A program made the translations under genes and the position numbers. Of a stretch of DNA of 7,057 nt, positions 3,150-6,513 are shown in pieces; position 1 is the stretch's first letter, and every line of letters begins with the position of its first letter. The notes beneath the pieces are model-generated. The model was not told where the DNA came from. It ran no database searches and worked only from the letters and a program-made list of their open reading frames with translations. Source of the DNA: Candidatus Helarchaeota ASGARD archaeon Hel_GB_B (GTDB taxonomy: Archaea > Asgardarchaeota > Lokiarchaeia > Helarchaeales > HEL-GB-B); the NCBI GenBank assembly GCA_005191425.1, contig SUPR01000139.1:1-7057 (forward strand). Direction: 5' to 3'.

Positions 3150-3941
3150 ATGAATTTTTGGAATTTAGGTCTTTTAAATTATCTAATCTTGAGGTTTCAA
3201 TTTGAATTTTTTATATTTATGACAATTTTTAATTTCTCATTAATAGTTTTTAATTCTGTTTCATTAGGATTATTGATATATATTAATGTGTTAAAATTTA
3301 AGATTTTTAAATATAATCCATATAAGACATTTCCTGTATGTTTATTAGCAATTTTCTTGGGATTAAATTCTATTATTTGGATTGATATCTATTTTGTTTT
3401 AGGAATTCCTAGCAATTTCCTTTTATTAAGTCAAATATGGACTTCTATTTTTATCAATATGTTCTTTGCTCTCTATACAATCCTTGTTTGGAAGAGTAAA
3501 ATTCTCCAAAGTATCGTAATTCATATTAATATGTTATTAAATTCAACATATCTTACACTTGCTGTTCTGGACGACTTAGAACTACGTCAAATATATTCTT
3601 ATTTCAGTATATTTGTTGCTTTAATAGTTACTATATTATTTGTTCTATTTATTAAAATAAAACAATTTGCTCCAGCTCCAGGAACTATTCCCAATTCTCT
3701 TGAAAAATGCGTATCTATTTATATTAATGTCCTAAAAAATAAAAAAGAAAAAATATTCCTAGACCAGTTATCTATGTCTGATAATAGTTTCGTTAGAAAT
3801 CATGCACTTAAAACTCTTTATCTATTTGACAATAAAAAAATAACAAAAAATAACTTAAGAAATAACTTATTTTTGCTTATTTTAATCGATAACAATATTC
3901 CGACAGGTAAATTTAGAAAAATATATTATAAGAAAAAATAG
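3150..3941 (+). CDS. Hypothetical integral membrane protein (~5 TM helices) with a ~95-aa basic C-terminal soluble tail
   Basis: Hydrophobic stretches at roughly aa 20-48, 61-86, 90-114, 118-140 and 148-168, then a Lys-rich tail. AGGT at 3139..3142 precedes the ATG at 3150. An alternative start is the ATG at 3219. Confidence 0.75.
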   Translation: MNFWNLGLLNYLILRFQFEFFIFMTIFNFSLIVFNSVSLGLLIYINVLKFKIFKYNPYKTFPVCLLAIFLGLNSIIWIDIYFVLGIPSNFLLLSQIWTSIFINMFFALYTILVWKSKILQSIVIHINMLLNSTYLTLAVLDDLELRQIYSYFSIFVALIVTILFVLFIKIKQFAPAPGTIPNSLEKCVSIYINVLKNKKEKIFLDQLSMSDNSFVRNHALKTLYLFDNKKITKNNLRNNLFLLILIDNNIPTGKFRKIYYKKK

Positions 3942-4291
3942 TAGATAATTAATCCTATACTCATTCTTTAATATTTCAATTTTTCGTAATAAGAATTTAT
4001 TGAATATTGCATTTTTAAATGTTATAATAATTTATCAGATAGAATATCAGCTTAAAACTTGAATTTTAACTTTTATAAATTCTAAAAAATTTCCGTTGGC
4101 TCAAACACCAGCCAAGATATTATTAAAATGAGTTTAGAAATATTAAACAGATTTAAAGAATAAATAAAAAAATGAAATAATAAATAAATACAAAATAATA
4201 TTTAACTAATTTAATAAATATTAAATACATGGAAATATCTTAATGTAGAAAATTAATGTGATTATAAAAAAAAAGTTTTAAATGAACCACC

Positions 4292-5212
4292 TTGAGTAAG
4301 AAAACGCAATTAAAAGTATTAATAATGGGCTTAAGGTCTGCAGGTAAAACGACACTAGTCAAGAATGTATTTGAAGGCAAGGAGTGGGATGAAATAAAAA
4401 ATTTAGAGCCTACTGAATTTGTAGAAACTGTCCAATACAAGTACCGTGGGCTGTTAAAAGTGACTATCTTTGATGCGGGTGGTCAAAAACAATTTATTTA
4501 TTCATACTTTACAGATTTATGGAGTAATAAAATATTCAGTGGAGTAGGCGTATTTATTTGGGTTATTGATTCATCTAATCCCGAATTATTTAATGAAGCC
4601 AAGCAAGAATTAAAAAAAGCTTTAAAATTTTTGAATGACTACAGTCCAAATGCCCGTAAATTCTTGATTGCAAGTAAATATGACCGTCATAAAATGTCAT
4701 TAGACCAAATTAGGATGGAATTTAAGGATATAAACTTAGATGAGGTATCAGCCACAAGTATACCCCTTGGAATTGCAAGAGAAATTATCTGTACAATAAT
4801 TGATTACTCTTTAATGGATATGTTTGATACACAAATTAAAAAATTAGAAAAGATTTTAGCTAAATTCAATAAAAATGAAAATGCATTAATGAGTATGTTA
4901 GTTAATAAAAATGATGGTCTTGAAATTGCATCCGCTATAAGTATTAAAAAAATTAATCCTAAATTAAAATATCTATCAATGAAAACTTTATATACTCCAA
5001 TGGAAAAAGCGCATTCAATCTTTTCATCTTTAAAGCAAGAAACTTGTGATTTCTTAGTTTCTCATTTAGGTGATTATTTCATAGTAGTTTTTAATCTTAA
5101 TCAAAAAATTGTTCAAATTTCAGTCCTCGAAGAACGAAATTTTAAAATAGCCTCAATGTTAAAAAGGCTTGAAGCAATGAAATCTCAAGTTTTAGAATGT
5201 ATTGAAACATAA
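4292..5212 (+). CDS. Rag/Gtr1-like small GTPase with C-terminal roadblock/LAMTOR-type domain
   Basis: G1 GLRSAGKT (aa 13-20), G2 T41, G3 DAGGQ (61-65), G4 SKYD (128-131), G5-like ATSI. Rag-typical segments are GGQ..F...YF, IFSGVGVFIWVID and SPNA.KF. From ~aa 182 a roadblock start follows (LEKILAKF...MSMLVNKNDGLEIASA). The start codon is TTG. Confidence 0.88.
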   Translation: MSKKTQLKVLIMGLRSAGKTTLVKNVFEGKEWDEIKNLEPTEFVETVQYKYRGLLKVTIFDAGGQKQFIYSYFTDLWSNKIFSGVGVFIWVIDSSNPELFNEAKQELKKALKFLNDYSPNARKFLIASKYDRHKMSLDQIRMEFKDINLDEVSATSIPLGIAREIICTIIDYSLMDMFDTQIKKLEKILAKFNKNENALMSMLVNKNDGLEIASAISIKKINPKLKYLSMKTLYTPMEKAHSIFSSLKQETCDFLVSHLGDYFIVVFNLNQKIVQISVLEERNFKIASMLKRLEAMKSQVLECIET

Positions 5213-5258: not shown

Positions 5259-5732
5259 TTAACCGTTTCTGTTTTCTTCTTTTTTCCCAGTACCAAAAAA
5301 TTCCTTCATTTCTTGAATTAATGCAGCGCGGATTGAAGTTGGCTCTTTTGTTCTTTTTATTTCATCTTTTGGAATTGGTTTTAACAATTTGCTACGAAAT
5401 GACTTGATTTCATTTTCATCTGGAGCTACGGTCATCGTTGTTGCATTGGACTTAACGGTAATAATTCTATTTTCTTCATTTTCAATTTTTATCTCTTGTA
5501 AACCTGATTTTGTAATTTCTGATTGTTGCTTATATTTTAATTGCTCAGAAATATCATTTAAATATGTATTATAACTATTAAACGCTTCAGTAACTTCCCT
5601 GCTCCAATCTTCCAGTCTAGAAATTCTATCATCTAAATCTAAAAAATTTTTTTCTAACATTCCAAGTGCATTTATTATCATCATAATAAATTTTTCCATT
5701 TTTTCTGTGGACAAATTCTCATTTTCAGACAT
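5259..5732 (-). CDS. Hypothetical protein: N-terminal coiled-coil helix, low-complexity linker, C-terminal WH2/beta-thymosin-like motif and amphipathic helix
   Basis: 157-aa ORF with ATG start and SD-like GAGATGA at 5740..5746. Heptad-like helix at aa 12-66. The CDS is well supported; the functional call is inference. Confidence 0.8.
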   Translation of the reverse strand: MSENENLSTEKMEKFIMMIINALGMLEKNFLDLDDRISRLEDWSREVTEAFNSYNTYLNDISEQLKYKQQSEITKSGLQEIKIENEENRIITVKSNATTMTVAPDENEIKSFRSKLLKPIPKDEIKRTKEPTSIRAALIQEMKEFFGTGKKEENRNG

Positions 5733-6108: not shown

Positions 6109-6513
6109 ATGATTGGAAAAATCCCTGAAGACATGTTAGAAATAGTTCTTGAAACAATACCAATTGAATTTTCAATAGTAGATAAAGATGATAAAGTATT
6201 TGCTTGGAATAAACATGAAACTCGTCTATTTAAAAGACCTCTTTCAGTAATCGGAAAAGATGTCCATAATTGTCATCCTAAAAAAAGTGTTCATAAAGTA
6301 GAACAAATTTTACGTGAAATGAAGGAAGGAAAAAGGGATAAAGCTCGATTTTGGATTGAACTTTCTCTCGACCCATCTCAAAAAAAGCAAAAAGTTCTTA
6401 TTGAATATTATGCACTACGCGATTCCAATGGAAATTATGTCGGATGTTTAGAAGCGACACAGAATATTACAGAAATTCAAGGACTAAAAGGAGAAAAAAG
6501 GTTATTAGATTAA
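6109..6513 (+). CDS. Stand-alone PAS domain protein (PAS_10 type, like the C-terminal PAS of DUF438 proteins)
   Basis: LETIPIEFSIVDKDDKVFAWN, R..SVIGKDVHNCHP, FWI and IEYYALRDSNGNYVGCLEATQNIT match the PAS_10 pattern, including the NCHP motif and the terminal PAC-like strands. Confidence 0.88.
   Translation: MIGKIPEDMLEIVLETIPIEFSIVDKDDKVFAWNKHETRLFKRPLSVIGKDVHNCHPKKSVHKVEQILREMKEGKRDKARFWIELSLDPSQKKQKVLIEYYALRDSNGNYVGCLEATQNITEIQGLKGEKRLLD

Follow-up and report, generated by a model that had tools for sequence, protein, structure and literature searches.

The gene at 4292-5212 of the window (the whole stretch of DNA analysed, which is the entire 7057-bp contig C47 of a 3.5 Mb genome that is 94% complete) encodes a protein that is confirmed as a real Rag/Gtr-type GTPase with a C-terminal roadblock domain. 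With a probability of about three in four, we consider it an ordinary working member of the Asgard RagGtr family, which belongs to a distinct subfamily, carries a Rag-like switch and is probably a side branch. The initial annotation had read the protein as an Asgard eukaryotic-signature protein and a self-contained Rag precursor; the Rag G domain, the roadblock, the eukaryotic-signature status and, from modelling, a probable homodimer were borne out, and the "self-contained precursor" was not. As first read, the gene adds little, because Rag-roadblock fusions of Asgard archaea are already published (PMC4917890, PMC10933270), modelled and crystallised (PDB 8YL2, 8ZLA, 9M28). The features on which the analysis rests are as follows.

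4292-5212, + strand: Rag-like GTPase gene, 306 aa, TTG start (ORF, Pfam, codon-position comparison)
4310-4816, + strand: G domain, residues 7-175 (Pfam, model)
4328-4351, + strand: G1/P-loop, G13-T20 (alignments)
4412-4414, + strand: G2 Thr41, equivalent to RagA T42, invariant (alignments)
4472-4486, + strand: G3, D61-Q65, Q65 being equivalent to RagA Q66 (alignments)
4673-4684, + strand: variant G4 SKYD, without the His of the Rag HKxD (alignments)
4754-4780, + strand: variant G5 region TSIP..IAR in place of the Rag TSI[WYF]D (alignment)
4820-5206, + strand: C-terminal roadblock domain, residues 177-305 (models, structure comparison)
4949-5161, + strand: predicted homodimer interface, residues 220-290 (complex model)
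5259-5732, - strand: convergent 157-aa gene, tail-to-tail neighbour and candidate partner (gene linkage, fusion)

The TTG start is kept in the orthologue from the same genus, and the two genes differ at 58, 29 and 169 first, second and third codon positions, respectively, as expected for a conserved coding gene. The database call of the protein begins at M12, by which strand beta1 would be lost. Its closest named relatives are proteins of Helarchaeota and Baldrarchaeia, and the host is taken to be an Asgard archaeon of the Helarchaeales. A TATA-like stretch lies at 4260-4270, approximately 25-30 nt 5' of the TTG, and recurs at an equal distance from the start in the orthologue of the same genus, which suggests a short-leader transcript, the signal being weak and the DNA AT-rich.

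The window also contains genes for a Cys-rich DUF6485 protein (39-248, - strand), an 883-aa GH38 alpha-mannosidase (245-2896, - strand, Pfam), a 263-aa membrane protein (3150-3941, + strand, very AT-rich) and a stand-alone PAS_10 protein (6109-6513, + strand). The 263-aa protein has no Pfam match and a homologue in the same genus only; it was rejected as a partner of the GTPase since that homologue lies on another contig than the GTPase orthologue. That no second Rag or free roadblock gene occurs nearby, as had been proposed, holds for the window, where "nearby" is bounded by the assembly ends because the window is the entire contig.

Alignments and the model show an intact GTP-binding site joined to the roadblock domain. 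G1, T41, Q65, K129 and D131 are invariant or nearly so in both alignments (A1 and A2), with K129 and D131 of G4 being invariant, and G3 is followed by a RagA-like F..YFT switch II insert. R15 of the P-loop is nearly invariant in the orthologue group, and most RagC proteins also carry Arg at this position. The proposed register of T20/T41/Q65 against RagA T21/T42/Q66 was reproduced by gapless alignment, yeast Gtr1 having the same numbers and human RagA one more. All the Rag-specific stretches listed in the initial annotation are present, except that the pattern G.L....D had been written one residue short. What had been overlooked is that G4 reads SKYD rather than HKxD and that Pro, not an aromatic residue, follows in G5. 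The subfamily profile matches Gtr1/RagA at 88/84 bits over its full length (profile positions 2-299), compared with 53 bits for Arl2, 49 for RagC and 46 for LokiRagO; the preference over RagC and Arl2 explains the initial impression of a RagA.

The C-terminal domain is predicted to have the topology alpha-beta-beta-alpha-beta-beta-beta-alpha. The full-length model (pLDDT 84.7) was searched with Foldseek, and the top 36 matches were all Gtr1, Gtr2, RagA, RagC or LokiRagO chains, matched over the full length. When folded alone, the C-terminal domain matches the Rag C-terminal domain 5x6v_G (Z 13.4, rmsd 2.4 Å, 117 residues aligned) and MglB (Z 13.1), and Asgard roadblocks also match; Rag C-terminal domains and MglB together span Z 12-13.4 and rmsd 2.4-3.1 Å. 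The roadblock-like domain first placed at approximately residues 182-304 is therefore modelled as a roadblock fold of residues 177-305, in a region where another fold had been named as evidence against a Rag.

Two copies of the protein probably pair through the edge strand and helix of the roadblock, the surface that eukaryotic Rags use. In the homodimer model, the interface consists of helix 231-244 and strand 254-259, the strand pairing antiparallel with its counterpart, and this surface is the canonical one of roadblock domains. The model scored 0.56 against 0.00 for the best control, and 20 of the 30 solved pairs and 1 of the 23 single chains attain this mark; at least 43% of the contacts agree among runs, with pLDDT of at least 81. 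Because similar complexes have already been solved, and the modelling may recall solved Rags, the predicted pairing via roadblock domains indicates likeness, not binding. LokiRagM is monomeric in the PDB, which counts against assuming a dimer for an Asgard Rag.

The genome contains 13 Gtr1_RagA-like ORFs on 13 contigs as well as 17 Robl_LC7 matches, so that the window gene is not alone, and its reading as a self-contained precursor is not supported. Nine of the 13 consist of a G domain and an approximately 130-aa C-terminal domain, including a 5'-truncated close paralogue on contig C50; a tenth carries, in addition, an N-terminal extension, and the other three are likewise extended there and end in a helical tail. 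Pairing of an A/B-type with a C/D-type Rag is obligate in eukaryotes, where the heterodimers act on TORC1 via Raptor and are anchored by Ragulator. A comparable obligate pairing in trans of the window protein with a paralogue, such as the product of the C50 gene, appears doubtful to us. Of the six other genomes of the order that were searched, five carry two to four subfamily members, two of them approximately 2 kb apart in G005, and an operon pair of Rag-like proteins from MK-D1 has been modelled as a heterodimer (PMC10933270). However, the model supports a homodimer, the paralogues are mostly unlinked, and both matching Baldrarchaeia genomes and most Lokiarchaeales genomes have one strong match each.

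The subfamily is distinct and occurs in Helarchaeales, Baldrarchaeia and, more distantly, Lokiarchaeales. It was found in 6 of 7 same-order genomes searched and 2 of 4 genomes of the Baldrarchaeia family, and a more distant group of it in all 25 genomes examined from one Lokiarchaeia family; in one further family the clade members are G domains lacking a roadblock. At E 1e-35 it was not found in the other families sampled. The roadblock-less members (such as L170:1492-2022 and L171:713-1906) occur in tandem pairs or beside uDENN-like genes. The Lokiarchaeales sister-group Rag (L033-L052) often lies between adenine phosphoribosyltransferase-like and methanogenesis-type C1 genes, an assignment made by eye on the basis of their N-termini. 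An IFT52 GIFT-domain protein (L139:978-2315) is encoded divergently upstream of the Rag operon in one Helarchaeales family, where three genomes show it.

Trees and signatures suggest that the window clade is probably a side branch and that neither RagA/B nor RagC/D descends directly from it, the deep branching being weakly resolved. In trees computed under LG+C20+F+G4, the clade falls outside the group of RagA, RagC and other Asgard Rags with supports of 93/92 (G domain), 90/96 and 94/92, none of them starred, and it lies outside RagA/B in all trees. Fragments lacking G1 (including the C50 paralogue), near-duplicates (identity above 80%) and three highly divergent RagA-like rows were left out, and Rab and MglA rows were included in the FastTree run only. 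Eukaryotic Rags fall, in the G-domain tree, with groups that contain Heimdallarchaeia and Thorarchaeia proteins, and in the full-length trees they have no fixed sister. In a published broad tree, eukaryotic Rags are nested among Asgard RagGtr proteins (10.1101/2024.02.28.582541).

It is unlikely that the subfamily is the closest archaeal relative, or precursor, of RagA/B or of all eukaryotic Rags. The gapless collinearity of G1-G3, the YFT motif common to it and Gtr1/RagA, and the preference of its profile for RagA/Gtr1 over RagC and LokiRagO (88 against 49 and 46 bits) speak for such a relationship, and AU tests did not reject a window clade joined to eukaryotic Rags (p 0.143 for the G domain; p 0.064 for the full length, 40 rows) or to RagA (p 0.10). 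Against it, the arrangement has a log-likelihood approximately 13 lower and is excluded by three trees, the one based on the G domain placing eukaryotic Rags with groups in which named Heimdallarchaeia and Thorarchaeia proteins occur, and most of the other Asgard families that were sampled gave no match to the subfamily at E 1e-35. Reciprocally, a eukaryotic RagA profile built from 17 RagA-like proteins ranked the window protein 156th of 233 scored sequences (a redundant list whose top three are eukaryotic) at 89 bits, compared with 120-157 bits for other Asgard groups, and 5th within its own genome, behind four paralogues.

The window protein also lacks the HKxD G4 and TSI[WYF]D G5 of eukaryotic RagA/B. 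The G4 His is present in 13/14 RagA, 8/8 RagC and 51/51 proteins of four other Asgard groups, but in the window clade only 5/16 carry it, and in its sister group 0/7; the aromatic residue after TSI is found in 13/14 RagA, 8/8 RagC and 44/51 other Asgard proteins against 0/16 of the window clade. The RagC rows of the analysis come from one motif scan and are taxonomically narrow. RagA and the window clade have in common an inter-switch length and a YF[TS] motif that are absent from some other Asgard Rags. The signal is thus mixed, since the clade has the RagA inter-switch length and YF[TS] without the RagA G4 and G5.

An Arf/ArfR-derived G domain that gained its roadblock independently is very improbable. 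The P-loop is Arf-like, Pfam Arf scores 69 bits, the window clade lies nearest to the Arf outgroup, and the AU test did not reject grouping it with Arf/ArfR (p 0.235). The branch that splits off the Arf outgroup is nevertheless supported at 100/97 and 97/97, so that the separation from Arf foreseen in the initial annotation was recovered in the tree topology and not in the AU test. The Pfam search suggested there put Gtr1_RagA (89 bits, E 3e-25) above Arf (69 bits), and the match of the subfamily profile to Gtr1 runs the full length, through the C-terminal domain; moreover, the switch II insert is typical of GTPase-roadblock Rags. Arf/ArfR proteins have an NKxD G4, an N-terminal amphipathic helix and no roadblock, whereas the window protein has SKYD and a roadblock, and only 6 residues precede its beta1.

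As a side-branch RagGtr protein, the window GTPase can be compared with three sets of known Rags. A 2016 review describes Lokiarchaeum Rag-like GTPases fused to roadblocks (PMC4917890, citing Klinger et al. 2016), and Tran et al. 2024 (PMC10933270) reported GTPase-roadblock Rags of MK-D1, their switch II insert, and models of homo- as well as heterodimers. The window protein resembles these in its G domain with a switch II insert, its C-terminal roadblock, the many paralogues per genome and the dimers modelled through roadblock domains; it differs in its SKYD G4, its TSIP G5 and the conserved tail-to-tail 157-aa neighbour. No description of the SKYD/TSIP subfamily or of this neighbour was found in the published Asgard RagGtr work compared (PMC4917890, PMC10933270 and 10.1101/2024.02.28.582541). 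LokiRagO (PDB 8YL2, a GTP-bound homotetramer) and LokiRagM (PDB 8ZLA, 9M28, a monomer) likewise combine the two domains in an Asgard Rag-like GTPase, and the window model matches 8YL2 with a VIA Z of 21.3 over 270 residues, but they belong to other subfamilies (approximately 17% identity) and vary in oligomeric state. RagA/B and yeast Gtr1 (PF04670; PDB 4ARZ, 6S6A) have the same domain order, length, G1-G3 register and switch II motif, and the same roadblock dimer surface as is predicted in the window protein; they differ in G4 and G5, show 18-24% identity, and the alpha4-beta6 region is shorter in the window protein.

The 157-aa protein is a candidate partner of the GTPase because its gene lies tail-to-tail with the GTPase gene in 9 of 11 orthologue loci and because a homologous module is fused to another Rag-like family. 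The linkage is present in all Helarchaeales genomes that carry the orthologue (6/6), in 2/2 genomes of the Baldrarchaeia family and on one more contig; the two stop codons lie within approximately 70 nt of each other and sometimes overlap. At the two other GTPase genes of the orthologue group the 157-aa gene is not adjacent, nor are its distant homologues in other Asgard classes next to GTPases. The protein consists of a helix/coiled coil, a linker and a C-terminal helix. The other Rag-like family, of approximately 400 aa and widespread in Lokiarchaeia, has a C-terminal tail homologous to it in the place of the roadblock.

G000 C117:17127-18308 (= L007:1165-2346) and L196-L224: tail-fused Rag-like family, the latter being 29 Lokiarchaeia relatives

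The 157-aa family profile scored 11-36 bits on these tails and at most 7 bits on reversed tails, and hhalign gave 97% against 2.9% for the family aligned with the tail. In the reverse direction, the best non-self matches of the tail profile among 5532 ORFs were the four proteins of the 157-aa family that the genome encodes. The terminal helix alone, without the coiled coil, reached at least 5 bits at the end of 26/30 tails compared with 6/2520 ORF ends. Because the 30 tails are close kin, they count as a single fusion event.

The 157-aa family has three further members, encoded at G000 C93:50700-51532 (+ strand) and C124:26016-26474 (- strand), the two on C93 in tandem and convergent on a 303-aa gene with a C-terminal Robl_LC7 match. 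Searches of Pfam and the PDB with the family returned only generic coiled coils, with no WH2, VASP or ESCRT among the matches listed; one distant homologue scored 23.5 bits with CCDC53, below the cut-off. Two distant homologues (L190:1420-1809 and L194:1465-1890) terminate with a Pro-rich arm and a Gly-Gly-Leu/Met-Met-Gly-Glu-Leu helix. We take the terminal helix of some distant homologues to resemble the helices that follow polyproline in actin regulators of the Ena/VASP and WASH types, a likeness for which database searches gave no confirming match.

In the mechanism that we propose, the window GTPase would cycle between GTP and GDP as a soluble dimer scaffold, with two copies paired, as modelled, via the roadblock edge strand and helix. 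FLCN-FNIP and GATOR1 belong to established Rag biology. By analogy with that biology, and from gene context, switching would be exerted by a longin/uDENN (folliculin/NPRL2-like) protein. Genes for uDENN-like proteins with weak Folliculin scores adjoin subfamily members at four loci and may encode a candidate GAP or GEF; several of the proteins are apparently membrane-anchored.

L138:83-1015: longin/uDENN-like protein
L141:1509-2870: longin/uDENN-like protein
L142:1118-2152: longin/uDENN-like protein
L226:2009-3373: longin/uDENN-like protein

The GTP state would then recruit an effector, the best candidate for which may be the tail-to-tail 157-aa protein. Nothing ties the window GTPase to TORC1: its own genome gave no PI3_PI4_kinase, Raptor_N, NPR2 or Folliculin match, in searches in which the control genomes missed the cut-off as well, so that absence does not follow from them.

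A further reading, which we hold only tentatively, is that the subfamily is an early homodimeric Rag branch with the 157-aa protein as its dedicated effector and the module as a general Rag-coupled adaptor. If true, this would be the first named effector type for archaeal Rags, and if the likeness to Ena/VASP or WASH-type proteins is also true, an archaeal Rag switch would be linked to actin. For the family as a whole, the G4 and G5 signatures split Asgard Rags, and those most RagA-like by eye in G1-G3 are not those that group with eukaryotic Rags, which matters when proteins are selected as models of the ancestor. Among Asgard Rags, whose role is described as unknown (PMC10933270), gene linkage and fusion give the one studied here a concrete candidate partner, the 157-aa protein.
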